Positions 5,033 through 31,269 are shown, counted from the first letter of the stretch. The stretch: DNA of 31,307 nt from a virus (IMGVR_UViG_3300005764_000055:1-31307), one strand, 5' to 3'. The notes: generated from the letters alone by a model not told the origin. Numbers and translations: made by a program.

Positions 5033-5482
5033 ATGGAACAGGAACCAAAAAGGGAACCGATGTCGAAAGCGATTGCGTCCCTAGAAAAAACGCTGGAAGA
5101 GATAGACGAGCAGCATGCGCGGGATCGGGCGGAGCTTCTGCGTGCGATTGAAAACCTGAAAAAACTAAAGCCCTCGGAAGGCAAGAAGGGGCGAGCACGG
5201 AACGGGAACGGGAATCACGCACTGGGAGTTGCGAACGGACGTTGGCGGGGAATGAGTATCAGGGATTCGGTGCAGGCATTTCTCTCGAACTTCGATGAGC
5301 CTGTGCCCTTCGATACTTTAATGACTGCACTGCGGGCGGGCGGTGTGGAGATGGGCGATCCAGCGAAACCGAACCGCTACGTTGCGAACGTCAAGACAAC
5401 GGTCATCAACAATCGCAAGTGGTTTCGGTATAACAAGCGGAAAGACACAGTGGAGTTGGTTGTAGCGGCTGGTGCCAACTAG
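5033..5482 (+). CDS. Putative DNA-binding regulator (N-terminal coiled coil, C-terminal winged helix)
   Basis: GAGGT RBS; heptad N-terminus, basic linker, SIRDSVQAFL...LMTALRAGG. Confidence 0.65.
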   Translation: MEQEPKREPMSKAIASLEKTLEEIDEQHARDRAELLRAIENLKKLKPSEGKKGRARNGNGNHALGVANGRWRGMSIRDSVQAFLSNFDEPVPFDTLMTALRAGGVEMGDPAKPNRYVANVKTTVINNRKWFRYNKRKDTVELVVAAGAN

Positions 5483-5775
5483 TCGAGCGTGGTGCCCGGC
5501 ATGGTTCGCGGTCTGCGATAGAGGGGGATCATTCCGCTTCCCCCTCGATTCATTCCCCACGGATTCATTGGACTCTGCCCTGTAGGGAACGCGGCCTGTC
5601 CCGGCTGCAGGGATTTTCCCATGCTGGGCGTCATGGGCTTCATCGCCTGCAGGGGCTGCATGGGTCGCAGGTTGGGCTGGTTGGCTGGAGCCTGTATCTG
5701 GGCAACGGCATTATTGCCTAAGCCATTGCCCATCAGGCCGGGTGTGGGAAATGCTTTTGCTGCTCCGGCTCCCAT
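5479..5775 (-). CDS. Low-complexity Pro/Met/Gln/Gly-rich protein, last late gene
   Basis: GAGGA RBS; begins MGAG. Confidence 0.65.
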   Translation of the reverse strand: MGAGAAKAFPTPGLMGNGLGNNAVAQIQAPANQPNLRPMQPLQAMKPMTPSMGKSLQPGQAAFPTGQSPMNPWGMNRGGSGMIPLYRRPRTMPGTTLD

Positions 5776-5781
5776 GATTCC

Positions 5782-5928
5782 TCAATGAATGCGCGGGGTG
5801 TTGCTTCTGACCTTCGCAGCCCACCGCTGCGGATTGCGCGCCCTGAGTTGATCGTCTTCGCGCGCCTGTGCGAGTGCCTTCGCTACACGGTCAGAGATCG
5901 GGTTATCGCTGCCCGATTTCCGAGGCAA
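5782..5928 (-). CDS. Possible 48-aa protein (TTG start)
   Basis: Open frame fills the operon gap; helical-looking RVAKALAQAREDDQLR; start uncertain. Confidence 0.35.
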   Translation of the reverse strand: MPRKSGSDNPISDRVAKALAQAREDDQLRARNPQRWAAKVRSNTPRIH

Positions 5929-10204: not shown

Positions 10205-10226
10205 GTGTTCCGCTCTAGGAACGCGC

Positions 10227-10232
10227 TATAAT
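10227..10232 (+). promoter_or_regulatory. -10 box of a leaderless antisense gene
   Basis: Perfect TATAAT 6 nt before ATG 10239. Confidence 0.6.
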
Positions 10233-10238
10233 GTGGAT

Positions 10239-10364
10239 ATGGTTCACTTCGCTCTGAAACTCTTTAGTGTTTGGGTCATCATCGCCAGCGGAATACTTCT
10301 CTTCCTGATTCCATTCATCGTGCACGCCGTTTACCGCCACATTCGCTATGGCGAAGACATCTAG
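10239..10364 (+). CDS. 41-aa single-pass membrane protein, moron / possible superinfection exclusion
   Basis: MVHFALKLFSVWVIIASGILLFLIPFIVHAVYRHIRYGEDI; fills the gap between two minus-strand genes. Confidence 0.65.
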   Translation: MVHFALKLFSVWVIIASGILLFLIPFIVHAVYRHIRYGEDI

Positions 10365-12335: not shown

Positions 12336-12680
12336 TCAGCCTCCGTAGAATCCCGGTCCCATCTGTGGCGGTGGTATGAAAGGCATAGGCGCAACGTTGA
12401 AGTTCACAGGCTGCGCTTGCTGTTGCTGCCCGCTTCCCATCTGCCCGCCTGCTTGATCCCATGCGTTTGCGATCTGCCCGGCCTTCTTCAGCCCAGTGCG
12501 CCATGGGCTTGGCTGGTTGAGCTTACCCCCTGCCGCATCTATGCCAATCTGGTTCGCCGTCTGCCCCATCGGACTGTTCATGCTCACGCCCGTCTGAAAG
12601 CCGCCAACTGGCAAGCCCGTCGTTGGGTCGAGCGTTGGAGCGCCTGATCCCATTCCGCCGTTAGCTCCACCTGCTCCCAT
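12336..12680 (-). CDS. Low-complexity Gly/Gln/Met-rich virion protein (114 aa)
   Basis: GGAGGTGA RBS; begins MGAGG, ends GFYGG. Confidence 0.7.
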   Translation of the reverse strand: MGAGGANGGMGSGAPTLDPTTGLPVGGFQTGVSMNSPMGQTANQIGIDAAGGKLNQPSPWRTGLKKAGQIANAWDQAGGQMGSGQQQQAQPVNFNVAPMPFIPPPQMGPGFYGG

Positions 12681-12693
12681 AAACTCACCTCCG

Positions 12694-13257
12694 TTACACT
12701 GCAAGCGCCGCTGGCAGTGTCTTCAATGCCTGCATTCCGAGACCGCCAACGGTCCCCCAAACGCTCGGTTTTTGCGGTGCACCCAACAATGATTGATTCG
12801 CCTGTGCGCCCAGCCCGGCATACTGGAGACCCTGATTGCCTGCGAACTGTTCCTGCCCCATCAGGCCCGCAGCGCCTTGTTGCTTCGCCATCTCATTCGC
12901 CATCATCGCCTGCGTCAAGCTCGAATCGAAGGCGCGCCCCTGTTGTGCGTTCAAATTGTTGATGAGGGCATCGCGGTAGCCCGAGGGCAGGTTCGTGTAC
13001 TGCGAGGTACGGCGATAAATATCCGCTCGCGCTGGAGCGAAAGCCTGCGCGATGTTGCCGGAATTGTAGTCGGTCATGTTGCGGTAGAAGGGCAGGCCAT
13101 TGTTCATGCGGCCCTGATAAAACGGCGTCACCTGCCCTTGCGTGCGCAGCATGTCCTCATATTGCTGCTGCGAGTTCTGCATCCCTGTCTGCCCGGTCCA
13201 GTTCTGCCGCCATGCCGCCTGACTCTTTTGATTACCGCTTGTTCCGCCGCCGCCCAT
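12694..13257 (-). CDS. Small ejection/pilot protein (P22 gp7-like by position and composition)
   Basis: MGGGG start, Gln/Gly/Asn-rich, amphipathic C-terminus WGTVGGLGMQAL; GAGGAA RBS. Confidence 0.7.
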   Translation of the reverse strand: MGGGGTSGNQKSQAAWRQNWTGQTGMQNSQQQYEDMLRTQGQVTPFYQGRMNNGLPFYRNMTDYNSGNIAQAFAPARADIYRRTSQYTNLPSGYRDALINNLNAQQGRAFDSSLTQAMMANEMAKQQGAAGLMGQEQFAGNQGLQYAGLGAQANQSLLGAPQKPSVWGTVGGLGMQALKTLPAALAV

Positions 13258-14190: not shown

Positions 14191-17051
14191 CGCCCTCTTG
14201 AATCTCCTAATATCGGCGCGGACAGGTAGAGACGCCCGTAGACCTCCAGCGGGATGTGCGGGATTGGCGTGCTCAGCGCCATGGGATTGGTGGGATCGAG
14301 CGCATCATTAGGATGCGCGGTCAGCTGCGCCCACAAGTAGCAGTGCGTCATCTCCGGGCGCTGCAGGTCAGACATAAAATGCCCGTTGCGCTCATCGCCG
14401 GGCACGGGCCGTCCTTCCCATGTGAGATTGACCCAGTACACGGGATCGGGATAGACATCGAGCATCCCTTCGTAGATGTACCAAAGAATGAGCGGGTCGC
14501 CATACCATTCGAGCGTTTTCACTGCAGTCCGCTCGCCGCCCATATATCGCAGCTGCACCGCATCCGCCACGAAGTACTCTCCTGCATCGTCGCCGCCGCT
14601 GTACAGCTGGTACAATTTTTCGTCTTGCGCTCCTGCCCAGATGCGCGCATGTCCATCCGCATCTCGAATCCACGCATGCGTGAAATCAGTCGCCAGTGGA
14701 CCTAAGTACACATCCTCGTAGCCTTGTCCATACGGACTGGCATCATCCCGCAAATTGAAATCATGGATCACGACGAAGGGTGCTCGCGTGCTGTCCGAGC
14801 ACTTGATGCGCAACACTTCAACCATGCGGGCCGGGTCCCGAAAATACACAACTTCCACATCCTGCAGGTAGGCATCGCCAATGCCTGCGAGCAAAGTTGC
14901 TTCGTATTCTGTCGAGATCGGGATTGGCCCGGTCGAACCGGGCAGCATCGTGCACAGCTGCTTATCTTGCGAGACCCAAAATGGTAGTGAGTTCCAGCCC
15001 TTATCGAAAGCATAAGGCCCGATGATGCCAAAATTGTAAGGACCGTTCCATGCAACCTCACCGCTCAGTTCTGATAGCTGCCCACAATCGCTTTTACTGA
15101 ACACCCAGCTTTCCTGCATGTAACCGAATCCGCCAATGACAGGTTCTGCGGTCGGAAAAGTCTCGACCCTTATGGGCGACCATGCCTGCGCGGGGTTGCC
15201 GACAAAGATGCCCGTAGTTGCATCAAGCTCGGAGCTAGAACGAAAGACAAAAGGCTGCAGCGCAACCGAGCCGCACAGTCGGTCACCCTCGCGCCAGAAC
15301 GAAGCAAATGCGGGCGGCGGATAGTTCTCCGTGGGCAGTTCGGAATTGCCGTCGATCTGACCAGTATTGATGTTGATGGAGGTCTGGTTTGGAACTGAGG
15401 TGGTGATCCACTTTCCATTAGCGTCAATGCACGCATAGGGAACGTCGCCACCGTCGCCTGTCCGCCCAATCAGAATTCGCCACTCGGTATCGGTCTGCGG
15501 CAAGGTGATGGGAGGCGTGCCGCCCTTCGATCCCCACAGCACGTTTCGCGCCGAATATCCGTAACGTGCCTGCGGTGCCACCATTGCGGAGAAACCAGTA
15601 AGAAGCGCAGTGAAATCGGGGAGGCCGGAGATGGCGATGATACTGTCTGAGGGATTCACGATGCGTGCGCCGATTGGCGTCCGATTGCCTACGTGCCCGG
15701 TAAGTGGGTTATAAATGCACGCATAGAACTGATAGCCCGGCTGCGCCCCTCCGATGGCAGAGGCGGCGAGTAGTCCGCTCGCCATGTCTTCCACGTAAGG
15801 CATTTGCACGAAGCCATCAGAAGACATCCCCCAGCCCTGAAAGTACAACTGGGTAAGAGCATCCTGATTGATGAGCGTGACAGTCGAAACGCTGTTTGGC
15901 ACTGTTAGTAAATGCTGGAAGTCGATGGGAGAGGCTATCGTGTAAACCGAAGCATCGACGCCAGCGGGAGCTTTGAACGTAAAGTGTGTTACATCAGGAA
16001 CGGAAACAACTGCAAAGGGTCCACTGCTATGCCAAGCATAGCTGGGGTTGTCGATTGCAACCACATCACCCACGCTTAGGCCGTGATTGAGCGGGCCGGG
16101 ACCAGAAAAAGCCGTAGTCGATGTTACCGTTACCGTGACGGTGCCGCCCGGCCCACCACTGCCCACCATAGTCCCGCTTATCTTCTTGAGCTTCGTGCTG
16201 TCAGCGCAGGCAACGTTAACGAAGACCGCGCCGGGACCATTGTTCTCATTGAATGCGACCAGCCCTTTGACGTTTGTATCTGTGACTGTTGGCAGTCCGT
16301 TGATGGTTAATTTCATCAAGTCAGTAGCAGCAACTGGTGCGGGGCCACCTCCAATCGGAGTACTGCAAGGGGCGATGCTGTTATCGGAGATGTTAAAGGC
16401 GGTGTAATAGAAGACATACGACTGACTCATCGGGTGGAATGTTCCACTGGCAGACCATGTTAGCGTTGCTGCCGCCACTGTCGCGGCGTCCGGTGAGTGA
16501 AAGCCTATCCTTGTCGATATGCCAGCCAGCTGCGCGCCGCTCAGTGTCGGTAAGCCAATATCGCGCAGGTAAGCACCGTCCCAAAATTTCGCATCGGTGC
16601 CGTTGTGCATGTAGAGGAAGCCATCTTTGGCTAGGGCATACTGCCAGCGATGAGGAGAGGCTATCGGGTTGCCGCGCACTACACCTGCCGTCATTAAATT
16701 AACGGTGCGTCCATCACTCACACGCCGCATGAAGGCATCGCCGCCGCGCCAGAAGAACACGCAAATGTCGCCATTGTTAAACCCGGTGATGGGCGCATAG
16801 GTTCCATCGGGTCCGCTGGGTGTCGCGACTATATAAGGGGTGATCGAATGCGGCCCTCCGATTCCGGGCAGCAAAGCTCCCGCATCGACAGGTGTGACTA
16901 GCGTATATCCATCGCGCAATTCCAGATGCCCATCCTGTCGCGGTCTCCAGTTGCGGCAGAGGAGAAACCGATTCGGTGGCTGCACCACCGGGTTGGAGCG
17001 TGAATCTACTCCGCCGTAGCTGGCTTGTTCAATCGCTTTGAGTGGGGGCAT
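14187..17051 (-). CDS. Tail nozzle / stabilisation protein with central insertion (954 aa)
   Basis: YGGVDS...NWRP..DG.L..RDG N-terminus typical of podoviral nozzle proteins; propeller-like C-terminal half; synteny. Confidence 0.7.
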   Translation of the reverse strand: MPPLKAIEQASYGGVDSRSNPVVQPPNRFLLCRNWRPRQDGHLELRDGYTLVTPVDAGALLPGIGGPHSITPYIVATPSGPDGTYAPITGFNNGDICVFFWRGGDAFMRRVSDGRTVNLMTAGVVRGNPIASPHRWQYALAKDGFLYMHNGTDAKFWDGAYLRDIGLPTLSGAQLAGISTRIGFHSPDAATVAAATLTWSASGTFHPMSQSYVFYYTAFNISDNSIAPCSTPIGGGPAPVAATDLMKLTINGLPTVTDTNVKGLVAFNENNGPGAVFVNVACADSTKLKKISGTMVGSGGPGGTVTVTVTSTTAFSGPGPLNHGLSVGDVVAIDNPSYAWHSSGPFAVVSVPDVTHFTFKAPAGVDASVYTIASPIDFQHLLTVPNSVSTVTLINQDALTQLYFQGWGMSSDGFVQMPYVEDMASGLLAASAIGGAQPGYQFYACIYNPLTGHVGNRTPIGARIVNPSDSIIAISGLPDFTALLTGFSAMVAPQARYGYSARNVLWGSKGGTPPITLPQTDTEWRILIGRTGDGGDVPYACIDANGKWITTSVPNQTSININTGQIDGNSELPTENYPPPAFASFWREGDRLCGSVALQPFVFRSSSELDATTGIFVGNPAQAWSPIRVETFPTAEPVIGGFGYMQESWVFSKSDCGQLSELSGEVAWNGPYNFGIIGPYAFDKGWNSLPFWVSQDKQLCTMLPGSTGPIPISTEYEATLLAGIGDAYLQDVEVVYFRDPARMVEVLRIKCSDSTRAPFVVIHDFNLRDDASPYGQGYEDVYLGPLATDFTHAWIRDADGHARIWAGAQDEKLYQLYSGGDDAGEYFVADAVQLRYMGGERTAVKTLEWYGDPLILWYIYEGMLDVYPDPVYWVNLTWEGRPVPGDERNGHFMSDLQRPEMTHCYLWAQLTAHPNDALDPTNPMALSTPIPHIPLEVYGRLYLSAPILGDSRGR

Positions 17052-19006
17052 TACACCGTGCTCTGCACTGCGTTCTGCGAGTTCGCGAATCGGCTTTCGT
17101 AGTCGTCGTCGTCGGAGTAGTCGATTTGTTCGCCGGGGACCATGCCATCCATGCCCTGATAGCGACTCACGAGCATGTTGTATTCCGCCATCGCAGCTTG
17201 GTACTTGGCGGCACCTTCCCCAAGCGTGTAGCGGAAAATCTGCGCTTCGAGCCGCTTCAGCAGGACGTGATGCAGGAAGGCGGGCACCAGCGGAATAGAT
17301 TCATCCACCGAATCGGCAGGAACATTCGGCACCGACCAGTAATCAATCATGATCGGATAGTCCTGATCGGGCGGAGGGGTCACACAGAGCACGAGGAACG
17401 CACCCGGCATCAGGAAATATTGCGAGGGCTTGCCGGGCAACGGGAAAAATCTGTTGGAGTAGATCGCAGAATCCTGTAGTTCGCGCTCGAACAGGGGCGT
17501 GATCTCCGCCCACTGCGTCGGGTTGCCATAGTTCGGGAAAAACTTCACACCGTGCTTGCAAAACTGCTGCAGGTCGCGTGCATTTGGAGGCTTGAGATAG
17601 CTGAAGGGCTGCAGGCCCATGACATCGTTTGCGGTCCCTGAGAAAGTGGTGTCATACCCGTCCTGCGTTCCCACCACCGCCATCCTTACATCCACATCAT
17701 CAAAGATCGCAGTAACTTGTCCCGTCCCAGTTCCTGCTGCACACTCAAATCGTCCAGTTACTTCCGATGTCGTAGGTGTAAAGGTAAGTTGAACCTGTTG
17801 CCACACACCAATCTTGCCCATATCAGCAGCTGCCGAGTGCCAGCTAACGTGCCCACCCAGAGCGGACAATGCTTCGATACTGATAGCGACCGCCTCCGAG
17901 CCCGAACTCTGCACAATATAGACCCACGCACTCATTGATACTGGCACACCGGGAATCAAGGTAATAGTCGTTGCGTTAGCTGCTCCTACGCCCGCCTCCG
18001 TCGTGCTTATCTGCAGCGCGGACGTGCCGCCATGAACGGGCGCGGTCACAATGCTGTAGTCGCTCGGAGTCCAGCCTGCAATCCCAGCTTCAAAGTTCCC
18101 ATTCACAACCAGATTTGGTCCTGCGCCCTGCACCACTGAGATGTCGTCAAAGTACGCTGTTACCTGCCCTTGCGCAGTGGAGGAGAACTGGCTGTTGATC
18201 TGACAATAGACCCCGCCAAACACTTCGCTGGATGTCGGCGTGAAGGTCACCGTCACCGATTGCCAGCTGCCGATGGTCGCGGTATTTGCTGATGCCGGAT
18301 AAACAGCGACAGCATTACCCAAAGCGTCATAGGTTGCGACCGTGACATCTACCGGGCTTGCACCTGCATAAGCTGCGAGATAAATCCATGCGGTTACAGT
18401 TACAGCAACTCCGGCTGTGAGAGTAAATGTGGGTTGCCCGACTGTTTTTTGCTGTGCGCCGGAAATGCTTAGCGCCTGCGTCCCACCGTGCACCGGAGCG
18501 GTCACGATACTTATTCCATCGGCACTCCATCCGCTCATTCCGCTCTCGAAGCCGGGATTAGTCAGCAGGTTGTTGGTGCCCGGCTGGGTGATTACCACTG
18601 GACCGTTGAAGCTGAAATTACTCTCCGAGAGCAGGTACACGGTCTGCCCCGGCGTGAGCACTGGGAGCACCGTGCCCGGAGGAAACATCAGGTAATCGAA
18701 TCCGCCCGCACGTTGCGCGCTGGCAAGCTGCCATGTGGGCTGCGAGGTGTACGCATTCGGCGAGGGTGTCGGCAGCATCGCCGTGAGATCGTACTGCCAT
18801 ACGCCAGTCTGCAGGTTGAAGACGGAGGTCTTGCGCCGCCAACTCCAGCGGGTCTCCATCAGGAAATGCTGCAGCGCCATGAGGAACTCGGAATCAAGGT
18901 CAAGGGTCTTCGATCCCCGGCGCTCGGTGCGTCGGTCAGCGAGTTCGATCAGCTGCGAGCGTGTCCAGCCGCCCAAAGCGGGAGGTATTAACAATCCGCT
19001 GCTCAT
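17051..19006 (-). CDS. Head-tail adaptor with two inserted CBM4/9-like domains
   Basis: Adaptor-like ends (WSWRRK...G...YDL; GKPSQY...PPPDQDY.I.IDY...P..LHHVL) around 2x NLxxNxxFE.G..GW...YFDD/IFDD. Confidence 0.75.
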   Translation of the reverse strand: MSSGLLIPPALGGWTRSQLIELADRRTERRGSKTLDLDSEFLMALQHFLMETRWSWRRKTSVFNLQTGVWQYDLTAMLPTPSPNAYTSQPTWQLASAQRAGGFDYLMFPPGTVLPVLTPGQTVYLLSESNFSFNGPVVITQPGTNNLLTNPGFESGMSGWSADGISIVTAPVHGGTQALSISGAQQKTVGQPTFTLTAGVAVTVTAWIYLAAYAGASPVDVTVATYDALGNAVAVYPASANTATIGSWQSVTVTFTPTSSEVFGGVYCQINSQFSSTAQGQVTAYFDDISVVQGAGPNLVVNGNFEAGIAGWTPSDYSIVTAPVHGGTSALQISTTEAGVGAANATTITLIPGVPVSMSAWVYIVQSSGSEAVAISIEALSALGGHVSWHSAAADMGKIGVWQQVQLTFTPTTSEVTGRFECAAGTGTGQVTAIFDDVDVRMAVVGTQDGYDTTFSGTANDVMGLQPFSYLKPPNARDLQQFCKHGVKFFPNYGNPTQWAEITPLFERELQDSAIYSNRFFPLPGKPSQYFLMPGAFLVLCVTPPPDQDYPIMIDYWSVPNVPADSVDESIPLVPAFLHHVLLKRLEAQIFRYTLGEGAAKYQAAMAEYNMLVSRYQGMDGMVPGEQIDYSDDDDYESRFANSQNAVQSTV

Positions 19007-19959
19007 ACCAGCTGCTCCTCTTTCTTCCCCATTTCGCGGGCCATGATCTCAGCCTGATAGCTGAGGTAGTCGTCAATCGAATAGGCGTAAGAGCCCATAT
19101 GTCCGGGCTTCACGCTGGTGTCGACGTGAATCTTGTAGCCACACTCGCGCGCCTTAAAGCAGAACGAAAGGTCTTCCCCGAACTCGCCATCGCCCCACGG
19201 GTGTTTCAGGAACTCGAACCACCACTCATTGCCTGTTTCTTTTGCCACCTTGCGCCGCCCAGCCTCGATGCGCTGTGCGGTCTCTTCCTTCATGCCCATG
19301 TGCTCGCGCTCATAGCGGCAGCTAAGGTAGTACTCGCCGATTTTGTCCAGCACCGTGGTCTTAGCGAGCATGAACGCTGCACCCACACCGCCCACCTCGA
19401 TCAGCTGATTGAGCGGCCAATCGAAAGCAGTGCGGAAGCTGAAGAGTTCCGGCACCCATACCCGGAAGTTAGGGAGTGGTGGGTCTTTGCGCACCGTGCA
19501 CGCGCCTGCCACGATGTCGAGATCGTGCTTCAGGAGCTTGATGAGCGCATCCTCGGGCGGCGTCATGTCGTCATCCATGAGGAGCACGTAATCGGTCGGC
19601 ACCTGCTTTTGGCGGAGCTTCACGAGCAGGTCATTGCGCGCCCAGTGCACGACACTGGAGGAGATGCCGGGCTGCGGCGTGAGGAGACAATAAGGCCGCG
19701 AGGCACGCATCAGCGCGTCGACAGCCTTATTGGTCTCAGGAGCGGGAGCGGAGCGAGTAGGAACGAGCAGGCTAACGAGCGGTCGCCCATCCTTCAGGGC
19801 GTCATCAGCGAAGAGAAAGTTATACCCAAGTTCCTGCCGCAGTGCTTCGCGCCCCTCGGCGGTGCTTACGAGGCTCTTGGCCCTGCGCTTCTCGGTCTCG
19901 AACAGTACGGTATCGAGGGATCGAACGCGCTCGAATTCTTCGACGAATGCGTCACTCAT
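19003..19959 (-). CDS. Family 2-like (GT-A) glycosyltransferase
   Basis: LLVPTR, ARN, YVLLMDDDM (DxD), GAAFML, GEDLSFC...GYKIHVD...GH. Confidence 0.85.
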   Translation of the reverse strand: MSDAFVEEFERVRSLDTVLFETEKRRAKSLVSTAEGREALRQELGYNFLFADDALKDGRPLVSLLVPTRSAPAPETNKAVDALMRASRPYCLLTPQPGISSSVVHWARNDLLVKLRQKQVPTDYVLLMDDDMTPPEDALIKLLKHDLDIVAGACTVRKDPPLPNFRVWVPELFSFRTAFDWPLNQLIEVGGVGAAFMLAKTTVLDKIGEYYLSCRYEREHMGMKEETAQRIEAGRRKVAKETGNEWWFEFLKHPWGDGEFGEDLSFCFKARECGYKIHVDTSVKPGHMGSYAYSIDDYLSYQAEIMAREMGKKEEQLV

Positions 19960-20948: not shown

Positions 20949-22136
20949 TCAAGCAAACTTTTGGAAATCGTAAATACGCGCGTGCCGGGCTTGGTGCCAA
21001 ACGCGCCAGCCCGCCTGCGTCAGATACAAATCCTTGAGCAGTTTCGGATTGGTGGGGTCGTAGTCGGGATAGAGGCGGGTGTCGAGGTTTTGCCCGTTGT
21101 TGACCAATGGACAAAATTCAACCGAGGGCAGGTCGATGCCCAGCGCCTCATCGAAGGTGCCTCCATCCATGTTGTAGTTGTTGGCAATCAACCAGTTCCC
21201 GTTCGAGGTGACAAAGCGCTTCAGGCTTACCCCGAATACCTTGTCCTCTGCGCGCACGAACTGCTTCGAGGCTGCCCAGTAATCCATCGCCTCTTTCACC
21301 AGAGGCGCGGCCATGAGCAGTTTCTCCGGCGAGCCATAACGGAATGCCATGCGGCTCCAGTCAAGGAACGTCATTAGCGTAGTGGGCGTCGTGGTCCCGC
21401 CAGCGTCAGCGATCCAGCTGGAGATGATGGAGCGCACGCCCATGGAGGTGTAGACCGAGGCAGTGCCGTTGAGAGTTTCCGAGAAGCTCCCGAACAGGCC
21501 AGCATTCTCGATTTCCAGTTTCTGACGGCGTGCACCGAGCCACTGGATGCGGGCACGCTCCGGGCGGTCTCCGTAAATCTTGGTTGCAGCCGCAGTGCGG
21601 GAAATCTGCATGGGCCACTCAAAGATTTGCGCGCCGCTCGTCTTGGGTGATTTGACCGGGGTGCGAGGATTCTGGATCGCGCCGACTTCAGACTGTGCCA
21701 CGCCCAGAATCTTCAGGTTGGCTACGTTGCTTATGGTGTCAACGCCAGTTCCGGCAAAGGCGCGGGTCACCGTAATGGAGTTGGTGCCGACTGCTGTCAC
21801 CTGCACCAGTTCTTCGACGGTCGCCGTCGCCTCTGAGGTCTTCTGCACTGCAACCACATCATTGACGCCGAAGATGGTTGCATCAGCAACGGCAATCGTG
21901 TTCGCAGTGGTGGTGTTCGCGACCGTAGCATTGGCCTGCCCGAGCATCACGAGGTCGGCATCCTCGAAGAACTCGATGCGCGGCGAGTAAACATTCACCT
22001 TGCGCTTGCTGTTATTGGTGAGAACGTAGAGAGGTGTGCGATCTGGCTCAAGAGTGAGCAACCGAGTCGAAACATCGCGCACGTTCGACGTTTCGGTCGT
22101 GAAGGAGTTAAAGGTCGAGATTCCACGGACGGCCAT
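20949..22136 (-). CDS. Major capsid protein (SU10/DUF5309-like, with insertion domain)
   Basis: RDVS..L..L.P..TPL, EFFED, QIF....ISRT, E.AGLFG, MGV, E.V.VT...N.ITVTR insertion; follows scaffold; followed by a terminator. Confidence 0.9.
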   Translation of the reverse strand: MAVRGISTFNSFTTETSNVRDVSTRLLTLEPDRTPLYVLTNNSKRKVNVYSPRIEFFEDADLVMLGQANATVANTTTANTIAVADATIFGVNDVVAVQKTSEATATVEELVQVTAVGTNSITVTRAFAGTGVDTISNVANLKILGVAQSEVGAIQNPRTPVKSPKTSGAQIFEWPMQISRTAAATKIYGDRPERARIQWLGARRQKLEIENAGLFGSFSETLNGTASVYTSMGVRSIISSWIADAGGTTTPTTLMTFLDWSRMAFRYGSPEKLLMAAPLVKEAMDYWAASKQFVRAEDKVFGVSLKRFVTSNGNWLIANNYNMDGGTFDEALGIDLPSVEFCPLVNNGQNLDTRLYPDYDPTNPKLLKDLYLTQAGWRVWHQARHARIYDFQKFA

Positions 22137-22171: not shown

Positions 22172-23497
22172 TCAGCGTCCGCTTTGGCGTCCCCGCACGA
22201 CTTGGTTAAAATTACCCTCTTGACGCGCGATCTCTGCGTCCAGAGCAGCCATCATCGGGTCGTCCTCTTCGTTTGCTGCACCTCGTCCCAGAGGGCCAGC
22301 TGTAGCTCGCCCCGCTCCCGTTGCCCGCGCAGCTTGGCGGCGTTGATCCGCCTTGCCTGCGAGCCTGCGCCCTGTCTCAACGGCTTCCGCTACCATTGCC
22401 GGATTGACCCGCTGCCCCGAGATGTGCCGCGCCAGAAGGGTGTACTTCATCTGCGCCTGTTGCGCCTGCGGCAATACCCTTCCGCTGCGATCTCGGAACA
22501 CCATGTCATCGAAGCCCGGTATCTGCTCGGCTGCTTCGCGCATCTGCTGCGCGAAGGCATTGGCTTCCGGTGTTCCCCGGATGGCAGGGAATGCAGGAAG
22601 GCCGGGATACAGGGGCTTGCCCTGTTCATTAGTCTGCTGTCGCACACTTTCGTATGCCGCTCCGTACATCTGGCGCTCATACATCTGCCCGAAGCCCGGC
22701 ATTGCGACTTCGATAGCTGCAGGCAGGATGTAGGGCACTGTGGTCGAAACGGCATCCGCCATAAACCGGGCAAGAATCGGAGCCTCGCGCTGCACGCTGT
22801 CCACGAGACCTTTCAGCACCGCCTTATCCTCCGGCGAGACGTTAGGGTCTTCGAGCGCTTTCACGTTCACATTGAACATGCGCAGCAGTGTGTCTCCGAC
22901 TTCCTTGACTGATTGCTGGTCAAACTGCGTCTTTACGAGGTTGTCAATCTGCTCGTAATACGCGGTGCGTTGTTGCGCCACATCCGGCGCGGGTTGTGGT
23001 GTTGCAGGCTGCTCCGGTTCGTACTCGGGGGTTGGCTCCCCTTCCTCTTCGAGCGCCTGTTCTTGGGCGATCCGCCGTTGAATTTCGTGATCACCGTCGA
23101 TTTTATCGAGCAGGAGATGCTTCAAGTCCTCGGGCGTTTTCGGGTCTTGCAGCGCCCTCCATGCACTCGGGTAGCGCTGGGCATAACCTTCGAGTTCACG
23201 CTGGGTGAGGTCTTTGAGCCTTTCCTCCACGGAGGGTGGCTGTTCAGCCTCTTCAGGTTCCTCTTCAGGTTCTGGCTGCGCTGGTTGCTCTGGCTCGCCT
23301 TCCTCTTGGCCGGGAGCTTGCTCCGGCTCGCCTTCAGTCTCTTCTCCTGCGTCGGGTGCGGGACGTTCTTCCGCAGCGAGATCGACCTCGGCAGATGGCG
23401 GGCCTAGGAACGATGAGTAGTCACTCTGTACCGTTCCCTGTCCTTGGTCTTCAGCGGCTGGTGGTTGGCTCACTGCCGCCGTTGATTCATCGGTCAT
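22172..23497 (-). CDS. Putative capsid scaffolding protein
   Basis: Very acidic E/P-rich N-terminus, helical body, directly upstream of the capsid gene. Confidence 0.75.
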   Translation of the reverse strand: MTDESTAAVSQPPAAEDQGQGTVQSDYSSFLGPPSAEVDLAAEERPAPDAGEETEGEPEQAPGQEEGEPEQPAQPEPEEEPEEAEQPPSVEERLKDLTQRELEGYAQRYPSAWRALQDPKTPEDLKHLLLDKIDGDHEIQRRIAQEQALEEEGEPTPEYEPEQPATPQPAPDVAQQRTAYYEQIDNLVKTQFDQQSVKEVGDTLLRMFNVNVKALEDPNVSPEDKAVLKGLVDSVQREAPILARFMADAVSTTVPYILPAAIEVAMPGFGQMYERQMYGAAYESVRQQTNEQGKPLYPGLPAFPAIRGTPEANAFAQQMREAAEQIPGFDDMVFRDRSGRVLPQAQQAQMKYTLLARHISGQRVNPAMVAEAVETGRRLAGKADQRRQAARATGAGRATAGPLGRGAANEEDDPMMAALDAEIARQEGNFNQVVRGRQSGR

Positions 23498-23785: not shown

Positions 23786-24969
23786 AAGAATTTTTCGATT
23801 AGGTGAATCAGTTCATCGTCCGTAGGATTGCGAATCGCCTTGATGCTCGGTTCGCCCACTCCGCTGAGCGTTGCCAGCGAATCGGTCATGACCACCGCCC
23901 CGCCTGTTACGGCAGTTTCATGCCCTAGTAGCATCTGCAGCTGCAAAGGCGAGAGGTGCACAACCTCGCTCGCCGCTGCGCTTCCGATGGGATACAGCTG
24001 GGAGTGCAACCGCATAGCGGTTGCAAATGCCGTGATGCCGCGCCCACCGAGCGTCCTAGCTGTGCCGAGCCTCAGCTTTGCCCTGAGAGGAGTAACGGGA
24101 GATAGCAGAACACTACGGGTGATCTCCTCGTGCTCTCTCTCTCGAACATAGTCACGGCGCACCCTCTCGTATCGGCTCCAGCCTGCAACTGGCTGCGGCG
24201 GCTGGACGACCACCACCCCTCCGGTCTGGACTTGGACCGTACCGACTCCAGAGGAAATGCTCACGCCAGTAAGATTGACGGTTACACTTTGCCCAACTGC
24301 AACTGTCGGCGTCCCAACTCTGGAGGCGAAGCTCACACCAGTGGGACTGACGGTTATATTTCGCTGGGCCGCAACTGTCGGCGTTCCCTCTGCCACGCTG
24401 AGCGCATTGCCTGTCGGCGTGACAGTGATACTGACGGGTTGGACTACCCCAACACGAATATCTACAAACTCATTGCCGTTGTTGTTGGGTAATGCCGCCA
24501 GCGTCGCAGGCCAGCCCGTTGTTCGGACAGTGGCGTCATAATGATTCGCGCCATTGGCGGAGAACGTGAAGGCGCAGCCACTAAGGTCTGCCGTAGCCAT
24601 CAACCGATACTTTTGCCCACCAACAAGATTGGGAGTAATCGGGTTGTTGCTTGCATCGGTGAAGGCAAAATGATCGACCCATCCCAGCGACGTGCTTGAG
24701 ACAGTGAGCGCTGCCGAGCCTTGAGCTACTAGGTTCGTGTTGTGGGTTCCATCGACGGGACCGTAAATCGCCAGTCGGATATGCGCCGCGCTGCTTGCTA
24801 CCTTGCAATACAGTCCTAATTGAACTAACTGGAAGTTGCCCGTGCCGGGACACTGAACCAAGCTAAGCGTGGAGTCGTTTTCAGTGGAGAACGCCGACAA
24901 GGTATCTGTCGATGTTCCGCCTAGCGGATTCCCCGTGGATGTGCAGCCACCGAAGTATGTTGTCGCCAC
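23782..24969 (-). CDS. Putative structural fibre/decoration protein
   Basis: Thr/Gly/Val-rich; repeats V.PTGVS....GTPTV; C-terminal PTDDELIHLI. Confidence 0.7.
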   Translation of the reverse strand: MATTYFGGCTSTGNPLGGTSTDTLSAFSTENDSTLSLVQCPGTGNFQLVQLGLYCKVASSAAHIRLAIYGPVDGTHNTNLVAQGSAALTVSSTSLGWVDHFAFTDASNNPITPNLVGGQKYRLMATADLSGCAFTFSANGANHYDATVRTTGWPATLAALPNNNGNEFVDIRVGVVQPVSITVTPTGNALSVAEGTPTVAAQRNITVSPTGVSFASRVGTPTVAVGQSVTVNLTGVSISSGVGTVQVQTGGVVVVQPPQPVAGWSRYERVRRDYVREREHEEITRSVLLSPVTPLRAKLRLGTARTLGGRGITAFATAMRLHSQLYPIGSAAASEVVHLSPLQLQMLLGHETAVTGGAVVMTDSLATLSGVGEPSIKAIRNPTDDELIHLIEKFL

Positions 24970-26021: not shown

Positions 26022-28778
26022 CTATTCCTCGTTGATCTCCGCGCCTGTCGTGGCTCCATCCTCGCCCCTTATCAGCTTGAGGATGCGCTTGCGCTTCGCT
26101 GGTCCGTGCTCGATGGTCAAATGCAGGTGCGCAGTCGGCGGTGCGGGAGCGGCGGCTTCCTTTGCCGCTGATTTGCTTGCGCCGCCGTTAGGTTTTCCGT
26201 TCGGCTTGTTCTTCTGCGCGGCGACACGCTCCTGTGATTTCAGCCCGGCTGAATGCTGGCGTTCCTGCGCTTTGATCTGCGCATTCTTTTGCTCGCCCTG
26301 TGAGCGCTGCTGCTGTGCGCCCTGCGTCATTGCGTGGCGGTGTTGCTGCTCCGCCTGCACCATGGCATTAGTGTGCTGTTGTCCCGCTTCGGTAACGTTG
26401 TGAGCGTGCTGCTGCGCTGCCTCATCCATAGCGTGACGGTGTTCGAGGTGCTGTTGCCGCATGGCGTGCCCGTGCTCCAGCCCTGTAATAAGCGCTTCGT
26501 GCATCCGGTCATCATCTTGCTGCCCGGCATCGTGGGCATGCTGCATCGCCTGCATCGCAGCTTCGCCTTGCTGCCGCTGTTGATCCTGTTCGGCTTCGCC
26601 CGGCGAGAGCAGGCTGTCGGCAGCTTCGCCCGCTTTCTGTCCTGCATCCGCGATGTTGCTGATGCCCTCGATCTGATCTTGGCTTTCGAGGGTCTGCGAG
26701 GGTTGGAGGCCAATCTCGGGCAGCAACTGATTCACGATGTCGGCTGGCATCTTGTCCATGGGCACTTGGATGTTGACGTTGATCTTCGGCGGCGGCGGTT
26801 CGGGCGGTCCCTGCTGCTCTGGGAGCAGGTAGTCGTCCGGGTTGCCGATCCCGCGAATGGTCGACAACTGGAAGCGGATGACCTTGCGGCGGTCCATCAC
26901 ATCCGGGTTCCCCATAGCTACTTGCGTGAGGTTCTGGGCTGCCTGCTGGCGCACCTCATCGTCCACGGCAAGATACGAGCCAGCCTCCGGCTCAACCTCG
27001 AAATCCTGCTGGATTTCCATCGGGTCAAGTTGAACTGCATACACCTTGTTGCCACTGTCACCCTTGAGTGCCCAGTCGGGCGGCGGTCCTTCAATTTGAC
27101 TGACGCGCTTGCGCAGTCCCTCACCCCAGTAGCGCTCCTCAATCGTCCAGCGCTGCGACTGGTCGCGTCCCTGCTGATTCATCCATAACTTTTTCTGCCC
27201 CAGTTCCCGCAGGTAGCGGTTACGCGAATCAAACTTGAATTGGGTCAGCGCGTCGGCAGCTTTGGACGCGAGCAGGGCGGTTGTCGCCGTCCTGCCCGCC
27301 TGCGGGTTGGCCGCAGTGCCCGTCTCGGTCGAGGTAAGCGACGGCTCGGCCAGCGACATCATCCGCATGATCTGCGCCTCGCGCTCGAATGCCCCCGTAG
27401 GCAGCGGCGGTTCCACCAGCGGCTTGACACCGTTAAGGTCCGCAACCTGCAACTCGCGGAACAGTCCGCGCACGATCACCTCGGGCTCGATGTTCACGCC
27501 CGTGCGCCGCAGGATGAAGGGCTTGAGCAGGTTGGTGATGTAATCAAAATTCTGCGCAACCGTGAGGTTGTGCATGTTGTACAGGTGGCGCAGCAGACGC
27601 GGCGTGGCATCGCCATAATGGGAAATTAAATCGGGCAGCGGTGTAAGGTCGGTGTACTGGTACTTGCCATACAGATCGAACTGGTACGGCATCCGCCCGA
27701 GACAGCGGTCGCGCCACTTTTCCGAGCACCACGTCGTGTATATCCTGCCGTCATCGCGATCCTGTGAATGCTGTTCCAAGATGTTGAACTTTTTGCGCGG
27801 GCGCAGATTGAGGGGAAGGTAATACTCCTGCTCGCGCTCGCGACCAATCGAAGCGTTAAACATATTGCGCAGGTCTTCGTTCGGTTCTTGGTCGCGCAGG
27901 TCGGAGTCGCCGCCAGTGTCAATCAGTTCCTGCAGCGCCTCGGGATCGAAGGCAGAGGTCTCCTCCCCCGTATCGGGGTCTTCATAAGTCATGCGCGACC
28001 ACTTCTGCAGCTGTAGGTCGTTCACCGTGTACTGCTCGATAGCAAACGAGGACATCGCGAGCGTGGGCGTGTTAGGTTCGAGGTAAAGATCGCCGTTGAA
28101 AATGAACTTTACGACCGGGCCATCGTATTGCTTCAATTCTTCGGGTACTTCGACCTCAGTGCCCGTCTTCGCCATGAACTTGGCGATCTCGTTGTCATCC
28201 ATCTCCGGGCCGTAATAGCCGATGGCTTCCTCGATCTCCGGCTCGCTCGCATTTTGCGACCTCATAATCGCGGCGCGGTTGCGGTAGATGACGTTGGAAC
28301 CTTTCATGATGGCGCGGCGGAATCTCATCATCCGCTTCAGCGTGTCCCAGTAGACCTTGCTGTATCCATTGCCGAGCGCTTCCGCCGCGAGCACGACGCG
28401 CACGTCGTGGAAGGCTTCATCGGAACGCGCATATTGCTGCATGGAGAGACCGGAGAGCATCTCGGCGGTGGTCGGGTCGCCCCCGATATAGCGCAGGCGA
28501 TAGGGGTTGGCTGTCATGCGCGCGGCGTTCTTGCGATAGATGATGTTCAGGTCGGGCATCGCCACGTTGGTGCGGCTCTTGTCCTCGGTCTGGGTCTCGA
28601 CTCCGGCGCGATCCCGCTTCATGATGGGCGCAGTCTTGCATTTGATCCCGCGCCAAACCTCTGTCCACTCGTCATAGAGGTTCTTACGCATCCACTTGCG
28701 GCTTTCGTTTCGCCGCTCGATGATGTCGGTCACCACTCGCTGCTCATTCGGCAGGAGCGGTTTCGGCTTGGCTGGCAT
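26022..28778 (-). CDS. Portal protein (P22-like) with long His-rich C-terminal extension (918 aa)
   Basis: Follows terminase; GNGYSKVYW, RTATT..L, DFEVE..AGS; helical barrel-like tail. Confidence 0.85.
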   Translation of the reverse strand: MPAKPKPLLPNEQRVVTDIIERRNESRKWMRKNLYDEWTEVWRGIKCKTAPIMKRDRAGVETQTEDKSRTNVAMPDLNIIYRKNAARMTANPYRLRYIGGDPTTAEMLSGLSMQQYARSDEAFHDVRVVLAAEALGNGYSKVYWDTLKRMMRFRRAIMKGSNVIYRNRAAIMRSQNASEPEIEEAIGYYGPEMDDNEIAKFMAKTGTEVEVPEELKQYDGPVVKFIFNGDLYLEPNTPTLAMSSFAIEQYTVNDLQLQKWSRMTYEDPDTGEETSAFDPEALQELIDTGGDSDLRDQEPNEDLRNMFNASIGREREQEYYLPLNLRPRKKFNILEQHSQDRDDGRIYTTWCSEKWRDRCLGRMPYQFDLYGKYQYTDLTPLPDLISHYGDATPRLLRHLYNMHNLTVAQNFDYITNLLKPFILRRTGVNIEPEVIVRGLFRELQVADLNGVKPLVEPPLPTGAFEREAQIMRMMSLAEPSLTSTETGTAANPQAGRTATTALLASKAADALTQFKFDSRNRYLRELGQKKLWMNQQGRDQSQRWTIEERYWGEGLRKRVSQIEGPPPDWALKGDSGNKVYAVQLDPMEIQQDFEVEPEAGSYLAVDDEVRQQAAQNLTQVAMGNPDVMDRRKVIRFQLSTIRGIGNPDDYLLPEQQGPPEPPPPKINVNIQVPMDKMPADIVNQLLPEIGLQPSQTLESQDQIEGISNIADAGQKAGEAADSLLSPGEAEQDQQRQQGEAAMQAMQHAHDAGQQDDDRMHEALITGLEHGHAMRQQHLEHRHAMDEAAQQHAHNVTEAGQQHTNAMVQAEQQHRHAMTQGAQQQRSQGEQKNAQIKAQERQHSAGLKSQERVAAQKNKPNGKPNGGASKSAAKEAAAPAPPTAHLHLTIEHGPAKRKRILKLIRGEDGATTGAEINEE

Positions 28779-28779
28779 A

Positions 28780-29850
28780 TCAGTAAGAGAATCCCCGCGC
28801 CATGGGCACAAAGCTGTCGTTGGCGCTGATGGTTTCGCGCGAGATATAGATCGGGTTTGACATCTCGATATAGCGCAGGTTGTCGGTCATGTGATTGCGG
28901 ACTTTCACAGGCTTGCCCGTGGGGTCTTGCCGCTCGATCTGCAGCGGGGTCAGTAGCTGGCGGCGGTTGGTTTTCAGCTGGTGAATGAGTTCCGGGCAGC
29001 GCTCTCCGAGGATGTGGATGCGGCTGGTGGGGTGATACTCGCCATCGTTCCCCATACGCTCAATCAGCTTCAGCCCCTCGTTCACGCATTCGACGCCGCT
29101 CTGGCGATCTTTCTTGGCATCATCGAAGTACGGTCGCCCCACGTCGAGGTCAATCATGTGCTTCTGGTAGCGCTGCTGGTAGTTTTCCTGCTCGGGATCG
29201 TCATTGGTTCCCTTCCCGAAACTACGGGCGGCATAGTCGATCACGCGCGCAAAGATTTCTTCCTCGTAAATCTCGCCCTTGTGGCGGTTCTCCGGGTTCT
29301 CGCCGGATTCGAGGTACTTGATGGTCTGCACGTACTCGCGGATGTTTGGCCCCTTTTCATCCTGTGGACATGGGCCGGGCTTGCCGTGGAGCATTCCTTG
29401 CTTCCATTCAAAGCAAACCTTGGAGGGCCATAGCTCGCGGTAGTACCAGCGCTCGCCCCATGGATCGGTCGCACACCACAGGAAAGCGTGCGGGATGCCG
29501 GGATGCGGGTCGACCGACATGCGGCGCGTCCAGTCGGGCGGAATCTCGCGAGTCGGCTCGACTGTCACCTTTTCGTTGAAGTTGAATAGCAGCGCACCCA
29601 GCGTTGCCTCGGCGTCGATCTCGTACTCCTTCAGGTAGAGCGTGGGGTCGGTCATGCGCTGGAAAGCAGCGAACGCCCATGGGGAAAGATGCTTGTTGAT
29701 CTCAGGCACGAAAGTTTTCGCGCCTTCGCCCTTGTCCGGGTCCGCTTCGTAGTGCAGGCGCAGGATGGTAATACCATGCGCGTTCTTCCACGAGGACATC
29801 CCTACATGCGGATGCTCAACCGGATTTTTCTCGGGCGGCTTATTCACCAA
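28780..29850 (-). CDS. terL: Terminase large subunit, C-terminal (lid/linker + RNase H nuclease) half only
   Basis: LHY.ADP, KEYEID, SVDPHP..PHA.LW, YREL, IDYAA, C..LI, NHMTDNLRY; no Walker A/B; in-frame stop upstream; TTG/GTG start after GAGGGG. Confidence 0.85.
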   Translation of the reverse strand: MVNKPPEKNPVEHPHVGMSSWKNAHGITILRLHYEADPDKGEGAKTFVPEINKHLSPWAFAAFQRMTDPTLYLKEYEIDAEATLGALLFNFNEKVTVEPTREIPPDWTRRMSVDPHPGIPHAFLWCATDPWGERWYYRELWPSKVCFEWKQGMLHGKPGPCPQDEKGPNIREYVQTIKYLESGENPENRHKGEIYEEEIFARVIDYAARSFGKGTNDDPEQENYQQRYQKHMIDLDVGRPYFDDAKKDRQSGVECVNEGLKLIERMGNDGEYHPTSRIHILGERCPELIHQLKTNRRQLLTPLQIERQDPTGKPVKVRNHMTDNLRYIEMSNPIYISRETISANDSFVPMARGFSY

Positions 29851-30031
29851 AGAACTGATCCCCTCTTTTCTTGGCGCGAATCGCGGGCAGTGAAAGCTCG
29901 CTGTGTTTCACCTTGTGCGGCTTGCCTGCGACGATTGCCGTCTTCAGGTTCGGCGCTGGGATGCCGTGGATGTGGCGGTACGCCGTCCACTTCCGGTATG
30001 CCTCTTTGGATTTGAAATGCTCAATCGGCAT
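29840..30031 (-). CDS. Small basic protein ending QFFGE
   Basis: 63 aa; MP...FKSKEAYRKW N-terminus; tight gene packing. Confidence 0.8.
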   Translation of the reverse strand: MPIEHFKSKEAYRKWTAYRHIHGIPAPNLKTAIVAGKPHKVKHSELSLPAIRAKKRGDQFFGE

Positions 30032-30034
30032 GGC

Positions 30035-30241
30035 TCATTCCCCATACAACGGGTCTTGTTCCTCGATGTGGATGCACTTGCCGCAGCGGAATTGCTGCGC
30101 GCCGGGCTGGGGGTCGTAGTCGTTGCAGCATCCCAGCTGCGAACTCACGCCACCTTTCACCGCGACGTGATTGCAGTCGGCATCCTTGCGAGCGCCGCGC
30201 AATTCCATGTAGTCGACCGACTCGGCAGAGACTCGCGACAT
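30035..30241 (-). CDS. Small Cys-rich protein ending PLYGE
   Basis: 68 aa; C...GCC...CGKC; GGAG RBS. Confidence 0.8.
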   Translation of the reverse strand: MSRVSAESVDYMELRGARKDADCNHVAVKGGVSSQLGCCNDYDPQPGAQQFRCGKCIHIEEQDPLYGE

Positions 30242-30883
30242 TTACTCTCCGAAGAACTGGCTCGGCTTTCTCGATCCCCGTGGCGGAGCTGCACGCCCGC
30301 CGCTGCTAGCAGCCGCTGCCTGTTGACCACCCGACCTAATGCCTGAAATCCCTAGGGGCTTTAGCCATCGCATGTTTGGGTTCGGCGGTCCCACGATTTT
30401 GACGTTTCGGCCAATGGTGGTGCCCGGATTCGCATCATTCCTGCCGAGCGCTGCGGAGCGAATGCTCGGATTCGCTGCGTTGATAGGACCGCGATCCGCT
30501 GCGGCCATGCCGAGCGGATTTTTCCCGCCCGTCCCAAGATTTGCCGGAGTGGTCTTCTTGGGCGGCGCAGCGGTGCTGCCCACAATGACCTTGGGCGCAG
30601 GCGCTGCAGTGCTGCCAACTATGGTCTTGCGAGGTGGCCCTGCGGTCGAGCCCACAATGGTCTTGTTAGGCGCAGTCTGGTAGCGCGGCGAGGTCGCAAC
30701 GGTTTTGATCGGTGCGCGCCCGGTAGGTCCGACAACAGTCTTGCGCGGTGGTTGTACTGGAAATGCCATGGTGTTGCCTCCTCGAAGTCGATTTGCCAAA
30801 TGCGGGCGCAGGTGCGCGGGAGTGTTGGGGGAAGCGTATGCTGCGCGCACACCCTGCATCATGTGCTCATGCTTGAACGCCAT
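30242..30883 (-). CDS. Basic Pro/Ala/Gly-rich repeat protein ending KPSQFFGE
   Basis: 213 aa from ATG 30883 (alternative start 30769 with GAGGAGG); KTIVGSTA repeats. Confidence 0.8.
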   Translation of the reverse strand: MAFKHEHMMQGVRAAYASPNTPAHLRPHLANRLRGGNTMAFPVQPPRKTVVGPTGRAPIKTVATSPRYQTAPNKTIVGSTAGPPRKTIVGSTAAPAPKVIVGSTAAPPKKTTPANLGTGGKNPLGMAAADRGPINAANPSIRSAALGRNDANPGTTIGRNVKIVGPPNPNMRWLKPLGISGIRSGGQQAAAASSGGRAAPPRGSRKPSQFFGE

Positions 30884-30885
30884 AA

Positions 30886-31122
30886 TCACTCTCCATAAAA
30901 CTGGCTGGGCTTGCTCTTGCTGCCGCCTGCAAATCCCAGCCTGCGCGCTTTGGCCTTGATCTTGGCTGCGAAGGCTGCGCCGTGGTGCATCTTCGCGAAG
31001 CCGATGGCTGCAGCAGCGTGCCGGGCGTCGGGCATGGGATAGGAACCCGTGCCCGATTTTCCCGGCACTCCCCGTTGCGATTTCGGAACTGCCTTCTTTG
31101 CGGACTCCGACAGGATTGCCAT
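30886..31122 (-). CDS. DUF6582-like small basic protein ending KPSQFYGE
   Basis: L....K...P.S...P....YPMPD.RHA..A pattern; GGAGGTGA RBS. Confidence 0.8.
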   Translation of the reverse strand: MAILSESAKKAVPKSQRGVPGKSGTGSYPMPDARHAAAAIGFAKMHHGAAFAAKIKAKARRLGFAGGSKSKPSQFYGE

Positions 31123-31125
31123 CGC

Positions 31126-31269
31126 TCACCTCCCGCCCAGCACTACGGCGAGCGCCCACAGGAACAATCCGAGGGGCACGAGACTCACCCGCGCGGGCTC
31201 GATGTGCAGCGCTGCCGCGAAGAACGACACCATGGCGAGAATCAACAGCACTAAGTGAATGGTTAGCAT
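31126..31269 (-). CDS. 47-aa protein with two hydrophobic segments (not in the ORF track)
   Basis: MLTIHLVLLILAMVSFFAAALHIEPARVSLVPLGLFLWALAVVLGGR; GGAGGT RBS. Confidence 0.75.
   Translation of the reverse strand: MLTIHLVLLILAMVSFFAAALHIEPARVSLVPLGLFLWALAVVLGGR

Follow-up and report, generated by a model that had tools for sequence, protein, structure and literature searches.

In phage T4, a capsid-targeting sequence (CTS) directs a diverse set of internal proteins to the scaffolding core (PMC3012670), and the N-terminal signal of the P1 protein DarB is sufficient to carry a reporter into the phage head (PMC9024508). For the P22 ejection proteins gp7, gp16, and gp20, docking on columns of scaffold has been proposed (PMC12005531), and gp45 of crAss001 loads via the portal wing, with binding by a folded 128-residue segment (PMC10172136). 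Encapsulins load cargo into an HK97 shell by means of short C-terminal peptides (PMC8346489). The selection of packed head proteins in short-tailed phages is poorly resolved, and the clear published targeting peptides that were found, those of T4 and P1, are N-terminal. Here we describe a C-terminal peptide, referred to as the tag, that is shared by unrelated small proteins encoded in IMGVR_UViG_3300005764_000055:1-31307, an incomplete phage contig of 31,307 nt (the window, analyzed over its whole length), and in related phages, and that is a candidate signal for loading these proteins into the procapsid.

Tagged genes in the window

Four minus-strand genes end in [FL][FY]GE (genes 1 to 4 in Table 1). 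They lie in tandem between the two halves of a split large terminase, the final codons of gene 4 overlapping the start of the terminase C-half. In a six-frame scan, exactly these four of the 1,569 stop-terminated frames of the window had such an ending, against a chance expectation of 0.02, and 13 frames ended in GE; the genes, endings, and codons given in the original prediction, which had been made from this DNA alone, were all confirmed. The same scan brought up a fifth tagged gene, absent from that prediction, which lies ∼17 kb from the four-gene cluster, in a putative ejection-protein cluster.

Conservation at the protein level

Related loci were gathered with the terminase C-half from three collections; of 165 loci, the 160 in which a terminase was matched were collapsed to 91 clusters. 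On the coding strand of these clusters, 106 of 22,565 frames ended in [FYLW][FY]G-x-stop; on the opposite strand, 7 of 26,841 frames did. The tag set used below comprises 131 tags in 61 loci (135 matches to a regular expression minus 4 judged to be chance frames). Its consensus is a Lys/Arg run followed by [SND]-A-F-[YF]-G and then mostly by E or G, and the tagged bodies form 26 BLAST families, 15 of which have at least two members; the largest is of low complexity and may be chained. The earlier claim that unrelated bodies carry a common C-terminal peptide therefore holds well beyond the window. The strict Gly-Glu-stop ending claimed along with it does not: zero to four residues follow the Gly, two of them in 40 of the 135 matches, and at least 10 different residues can occupy the position after it, although GE (64) and GG (14) are the commonest of the 95 single-residue tails. 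Because both the residue and the tail length after the Gly vary, the terminal Glu is dispensable, and what is kept across relatives is an aromatic-aromatic-Gly core near the C-terminus.

This variable terminus disfavors both carboxylate-reading degrons and the proposal of a Pup- or ubiquitin-like conjugation end, in which Gly-Glu or Gly-Gly would be joined to target lysines. The two commonest endings would suit such a role, but Pup and the ubiquitin-like modifiers end in an invariant GGE/GGQ or GG, whereas some of the tags end at the Gly itself, and general profile scans of the 26 window proteins (the window only) found no ligase; conjugation, rejected on the variable terminus, is the least probable of the explanations considered. 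A ribosome-arrest peptide was also rejected, since the distance to the stop varies. The ending could, alternatively, be a by-product of DNA or RNA signals (a U-rich element plus the Shine-Dalgarno [SD] sequence of the next gene) or of recent duplication, in line with the GGAG-like, SD-like words within 56 of the 131 tags and the 77% identity between gene 1 and gene 2 over 39 nt at their 3' ends. However, the other 75 tags lack such a word, and all four Gly codons are used (GGA, 43; GGC, 43; GGT, 24; GGG, 21), so that 88 of the 131 tags have a codon other than GGA; conservation of nothing but GGAG DNA, raised in the original prediction as a result that would speak against it, is not what the relatives display. 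The stop codons vary as well (TGA, 68; TAA, 44; TAG, 19). The tags keep to a single reading frame with respect to the stop: downstream of 164 TTYTWYGGN words, 88 stop triplets lie at +3, 40 at +6, and 13 at +9, compared with 11 out of frame (these counts are not exclusive). Tags on nonhomologous bodies are alike at 4.9 of 7 positions within a locus and at 4.0 between loci (0 of 1,000 permutations; kinship not controlled), but the same residue is encoded by the same codon in 47% of cases within a locus and in 41% between loci, and this barely raised codon identity argues against recent duplication as the main cause. Both the SD by-product and DNA duplication were rejected as contradicted by the codon and frame tests and are very improbable; DNA or RNA signals may account for no more than the preference for Glu or Gly behind the Gly of the tag. 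Judging from synonymous variation, frame specificity, the 26 body families, and the tagless homologs outside the clade (see below), the tag is selected as a peptide, as the original prediction had proposed.

Distribution across relatives and tagged bodies

The comparison between clades used those clusters, 48 in number, that had 2 kb or more of upstream sequence. Among the 43 loci that a 97/96 branch sets apart as the ingroup, 41 carry tagged genes near terL, as does 1 of 5 outgroup loci, the latter being a borderline match. On the opposite strand, only 1 of the 43 loci is tagged, and the corresponding frame counts are 103 of 1,583 (coding) versus 1 of 1,817 (opposite). A DNA pattern for AFY-G-E-stop, run across the viral collection, gave 29 matches, and so narrow an exact-codon pattern brought no second lineage to light: 9 matches belong to the clade (7 of them with more tags within 2.5 kb), and the other 20 are isolated, without homology to clade genes or convincing clusters. 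In tagless outgroup phages, small basic or low-complexity genes occupy the same two zones and have Met-rich ends (such as SKMMEALQ and SMMRMMQP; L072:5892-6283 and G023 near 24236-24621), which are perhaps a different tag. A promoter and terminator scan of L087 (positions 5500 to 11200) stayed at the chance level.

Most of the tagged proteins (124 of 131) have a net positive charge, and their median length is 76 amino acids (aa). Their bodies include DUF6496 (37 to 43 bits; cutoff, 24) as well as matches to DUF6582 and DUF3008 that are below the cutoff, and the sets of tagged genes vary freely among close relatives. The body of gene 1 matches phrog_16160 (E value of 1.9e-4); DUF6582 is found in 11 to 14% of the members of its Atlas neighbors, and with the DUF6582 profile (PF20223) the homolog in L024 scores 24.7 bits against a cutoff of 27.3, the window gene itself having no Pfam match. 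This body is widespread, with 3,960 representatives at an E value of ≤0.001 (clustered at 50% identity), and none of the best 150 of these carries the tag, which indicates that the tag is a clade-specific addition. Among the long phrog_16160 proteins, 1 of 29 is fused to a head maturation protease, which was counted in favor of the cargo function proposed below. In the AlphaFold model of gene 1, helices span residues 6 to 11, 33 to 46, and 49 to 62, and residues 63 to 78 have no secondary structure, so the tag is predicted to sit on a flexible tail behind a helical body; a Foldseek search with this 78-aa model gave no match at an E value of ≤0.001.

The repeats of gene 2 are present in three copies at a 36-nt spacing. 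Within this gene, an internal ATG (Met39) behind GGAGG is a possible second start, and an SD-like word precedes the equivalent ATG in 11 of the 15 family members, which suggests that two isoforms with an identical tag may be produced. An untagged gene for a 47-aa hydrophobic protein (31126-31269) lies directly ahead of the tagged cluster, and similar genes for small membrane proteins occupy this position in several relatives.

A second tagged zone in the putative ejection-protein cluster

Gene 5 has counterparts in related phages. The zone counts cover most or all of 22 related contigs (18 ingroup, 4 outgroup), and their open reading frame (ORF) totals include spurious frames. Of the ingroup ORFs, the tag ends 37 of the 336 that lie in the terminase cluster and 12 of the 37 that directly follow the gp7-like gene. 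Outside both zones, it ends 2 of 1,575 ORFs on the same strand; the other strand has 4 of 1,991, and the outgroup has 0 of 770. When the allowed tail length is relaxed, 14 of 17 contigs have a tagged gene behind the gp7-like one. The ejection cluster's last large gene is followed by a small gene that is likewise tagged in G002, G006, and G024 and has a variant tag in G008. The 14 tagged proteins encoded after the gp7-like gene are rich in Gly, Gln, Pro, and Ala and have only 0 to 2 Lys/Arg residues ahead of the tag, which places the basic run outside the tag core.

Proposed function in procapsid loading

The simplest feature common to the small basic proteins encoded next to terL and the small proteins of the ejection cluster is a shared destination inside the head, and the occurrence of the tag in the putative ejection-protein cluster lends independent circumstantial support to cargo loading. 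We consider it probable, from the sequence patterns above, that the tag binds a pocket on a procapsid component during assembly and thereby loads small proteins into the head. The aromatic-aromatic-Gly peptide, at the C-terminus or up to four residues from it, would dock on an interior part of the procapsid as it assembles, with the scaffold core as the likeliest site and the inner wall of the capsid as the next, and the docked small late proteins would end up in the phage head and hence be present in virions. There, the basic proteins of the terminase cluster, with their Lys/Arg run before the tag, could neutralize or bind the packaged DNA or be injected, and the Gly/Gln/Pro-rich proteins of the ejection cluster could travel with the ejection proteins.

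If loading does take place, the scaffold would be the leading candidate receptor, at a little under an even chance, with the major capsid protein a somewhat weaker candidate and the portal an unlikely one. The scaffold is the first guess because of the T4 and P22 precedents, its acidic N-terminal third, and the distribution of the putative scaffold family, which was detected in all 18 ingroup contigs and in none of the 4 outgroup contigs; the capsid and portal families span both groups. The precedents for the two alternatives are the encapsulins for the inner wall of the capsid (PMC8346489) and crAss001 gp45 for the portal wing (PMC10172136).

A number of observations weigh against this picture. 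With five outgroup rows, the tree provides a weak test of the labels (4 changes; 13 of 500 shuffles gave as low a number). The two exceptions among the 43 ingroup loci are L116, which has adjacent terminase halves without cargo genes, and L142, in which tag-like ends are found farther away, in an atypical, seemingly nonstructural module. The gene after the gp7-like gene is untagged in 3 of 17 contigs (G008, G011, and G023), as is the window gene at 5479-5775, although its positional equivalent is tagged in four contigs; two close homologs of gene 1 (P0299 and P0380) lack the tag, and so do 7 of the 12 homologs of the Cys-rich gene 3 (one of the 5 tagged ones is from the window's own cluster). 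No tag was found at the ends of the large putative ejection proteins, the scaffold, or the capsid protein. The assignment of the ejection cluster rests on gene order and an Atlas lead, the gp7/gp14-like family (15 members) having no Pfam match and no significant PDB sequence match, and the scaffold could track the clade through its fast evolution only.

Three other explanations accept the tag as a peptide and give it a different partner. It could dock on a host protein or govern stability, as a degron or a shield against proteases, either following injection or at a late stage of infection. Binding to host machines is common among short aromatic motifs at the C-terminus of a flexible tail, and the greater likeness of tags within a locus, kinship again not being controlled, fits one partner per phage, be it host or viral. 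Degrons of the carboxylate-reading kind, however, recognize the free C-terminal carboxylate, whereas both the terminal residue of the tag and its distance from the C-terminus vary, and the near confinement of the tag to two morphogenesis zones also speaks against a host role, which is unlikely. Binding to the split large terminase or the packaging motor, with the small proteins bridging or regulating the halves, would account for the position of most tagged genes between or beside the terL halves and for the last of them often overlapping the start codon of the C-half. It is less compatible with the tagged genes that follow the gp7-like gene ∼17 kb away in 14 of 17 contigs, with the split terminases that have no tagged genes in L116 and the outgroup contigs, and with the free variation of cargo sets; since tagged genes also lie far from terL, the terminase has a low probability of being the receptor. 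Finally, the aromatic pair might be a self-association sticker through which tagged proteins bind each other or cocondense with DNA and scaffold without a dedicated pocket. Many of the bodies are of low complexity or basic, and several relatives have NPFY/AFYG-like words within their gp7-like protein, but the single copy, near-fixed terminal position, and narrow consensus ([NS]-[AP]-F-[YF]-G) of the tag look more like a pocket ligand, and the sticker is quite improbable.

The more than 100 natural tag variants on 26 unrelated bodies make the question of head loading directly testable. The tag would also give a first functional handle on widespread uncharacterized small phage proteins (DUF6496, DUF6582-like, and DUF3008-like), tie head loading in phages to the cargo loading of encapsulins, and offer a small label for loading engineered capsids.

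Gene neighborhood and phage context

The positions of the tagged genes and of the assembly genes of the window are listed in Table 1.

Table 1. Tagged genes, tag codons, and candidate assembly genes in the window
Feature	Position	Strand	Description
Tagged gene 1	30886-31122	-	78 aa, basic, phrog_16160/DUF6582-like helical body; ends KSKPSQFYGE
Tag codons F-Y-G-E-stop, gene 1	30886-30900	-	TTT TAT GGA GAG TGA
Tagged gene 2	30242-30883	-	213 aa, Pro/Gly/Lys-rich, 12-aa repeats; ends RKPSQFFGE
Tag codons F-F-G-E-stop, gene 2	30242-30256	-	TTC TTC GGA GAG TAA
Tagged gene 3	30035-30241	-	68 aa, Cys-rich; ends EQDPLYGE
Tag codons L-Y-G-E-stop, gene 3	30035-30049	-	TTG TAT GGG GAA TGA
Tagged gene 4	29840-30031	-	63 aa, basic; ends RGDQFFGE
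Tag codons F-F-G-E-stop, gene 4	29840-29854	-	TTC TTT GGT GAA TAA
Tagged gene 5	12336-12680	-	114 aa, Gly/Gln/Pro-rich; ends GPGFYGG; directly after the gp7/gp14-like gene
Tag codons F-Y-G-G-stop, gene 5	12336-12350	-	From sequence
Terminase C-half, untagged	28780-29850	-	Alignment members match TerL PHROGs (10/52 and 8/52)
Putative portal	26022-28781	-	Candidate receptor; 2/21 family members match the phrog_1216 portal, best E value 2.4e-5; position
Putative scaffolding protein	22172-23497	-	First-choice candidate receptor; acidic N-terminal third; position between portal and capsid, and composition
Major capsid protein, HK97 fold, SU10_MCP	20949-22136	-	Candidate receptor; PF17236, 74.9 bits (cutoff, 24.1)
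Putative first ejection protein (P22 gp7/T7 gp14-like)	12694-13257	-	End untagged; internal PFY motifs

The terminase N-half lies just past the end of the window and is seen in a near-identical contig (L001:2542-3099; phrog_5989 TerL, E value of 4e-4). Throughout the family, two separate genes encode the large terminase; the halves are adjacent in L116 (9144-11017) and elsewhere are parted by variable genes, including in the tagless outgroup contigs. The C-half ends in a conserved G-x-x-Y (28780-28806), with an invariant Gly and a nearly invariant Tyr in 52 sequences, which is possibly a portal-docking tail. Profile scans of the window proteins gave no family match for the putative scaffold. 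In four relatives (L181, L187, L204, and L224), the putative scaffolds end in [NDT]PF[AR]x words that are loosely tag-like; the window scaffold has no such end. The best Foldseek match of the capsid protein model (mean pLDDT, 72.7) is the capsid of Vibrio phage VP1 (E value of 5.5e-24), followed by crAss001, Pa223, and SU10, and the matches include encapsulin shells in addition to phage capsids.

For the gp7/gp14-like gene, the nearest Pfam-bearing Atlas clusters are T7_gp14 (0.91; 16% of members) and P22_gp7 (0.90; 32%), which is a lead only. PDB sequence searches with the terminase half, the gp7-like family, and the portal returned nothing significant. Internal PFY words are conserved in the gp7-like proteins, several of which, in relatives, also contain an NPAAFYGG that resembles the tag and is possibly its source or an internal copy of it. 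A putative ejection protein of 1,433 aa (5903-10204) combines a Zeta-toxin-like kinase (E value of 8e-21) with ParB-like domains and is of the polyvalent type. The window also encodes an SU10-like adaptor (below the cutoff) and an integrase. Two CBM_4_9 carbohydrate-binding domains are inserted in the adaptor-like gene (the adaptor-like and glycosyltransferase-like region spans 17051-19006 and 19003-19959), and the glycosyltransferase-like gene in the structural module is conserved in 20 of 22 contigs. The clade consists of uncultured, short-tailed (podovirus-type) phages, and since all four terminase-half matches in the genome collection sit in Acidobacteriota assemblies, the host is likely a member of the Acidobacteriota.

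Comparison with known systems

No description of the tag motif or of the clade was found in the literature searched, which consisted mainly of titles and the starts of abstracts, with few subscription papers and no supplements, and the same literature yielded no paper naming DUF6496, DUF6582-like, or DUF3008-like small phage proteins. The clade-wide C-terminal tag is real and apparently undescribed.

The T4 CTS is cut off by the prohead protease; general profile scans of the 26 window proteins gave no protease match, several conserved small genes there being unannotated. Like the tag, the CTS is one short peptide carried by diverse, fast-changing small internal proteins (PMC3012670). However, the CTS is N-terminal (PMC9024508), whereas the tag is C-terminal and has an aromatic-Gly core, so by its position it lies outside the CTS. 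The P1 DarB signal is likewise N-terminal, and its authors found no consensus among the Dar proteins (PMC9024508), whereas the consensus of the tag spans all its body families. The cargo proteins of P22 and crAss001 resemble the proposed tagged cargo in being internal proteins loaded at the procapsid stage, but no shared linear tag is described for them in the available portions of PMC12005531 and PMC10172136.

The system proposed here resembles Family 1 encapsulins in its short C-terminal peptide on unrelated cargo, its flexible tail (in one model), and an HK97-fold shell encoded nearby. Their peptide consensus, SDGSLGIGSLKRS (PMC8346489), is, when compared by eye, unlike the K/R-rich-[SND]-A-F-[YF]-G of the tag. 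Encapsulins are encoded in cellular operons and take up enzymes, whereas the tagged genes lie among terminase, portal, adaptor, and integrase genes and encode small basic or low-complexity proteins; by its consensus and in view of the cellular context of encapsulins, the tag is outside the Family 1 peptides. That a single encapsulin-style C-terminal peptide of ∼5 residues addresses both an open-ended set of basic head proteins and the ejection-module proteins to one procapsid pocket is a tentative proposal, closer to doubtful than to probable; if true, it would amount to a linear code for loading podovirus heads that is portable to any cargo.

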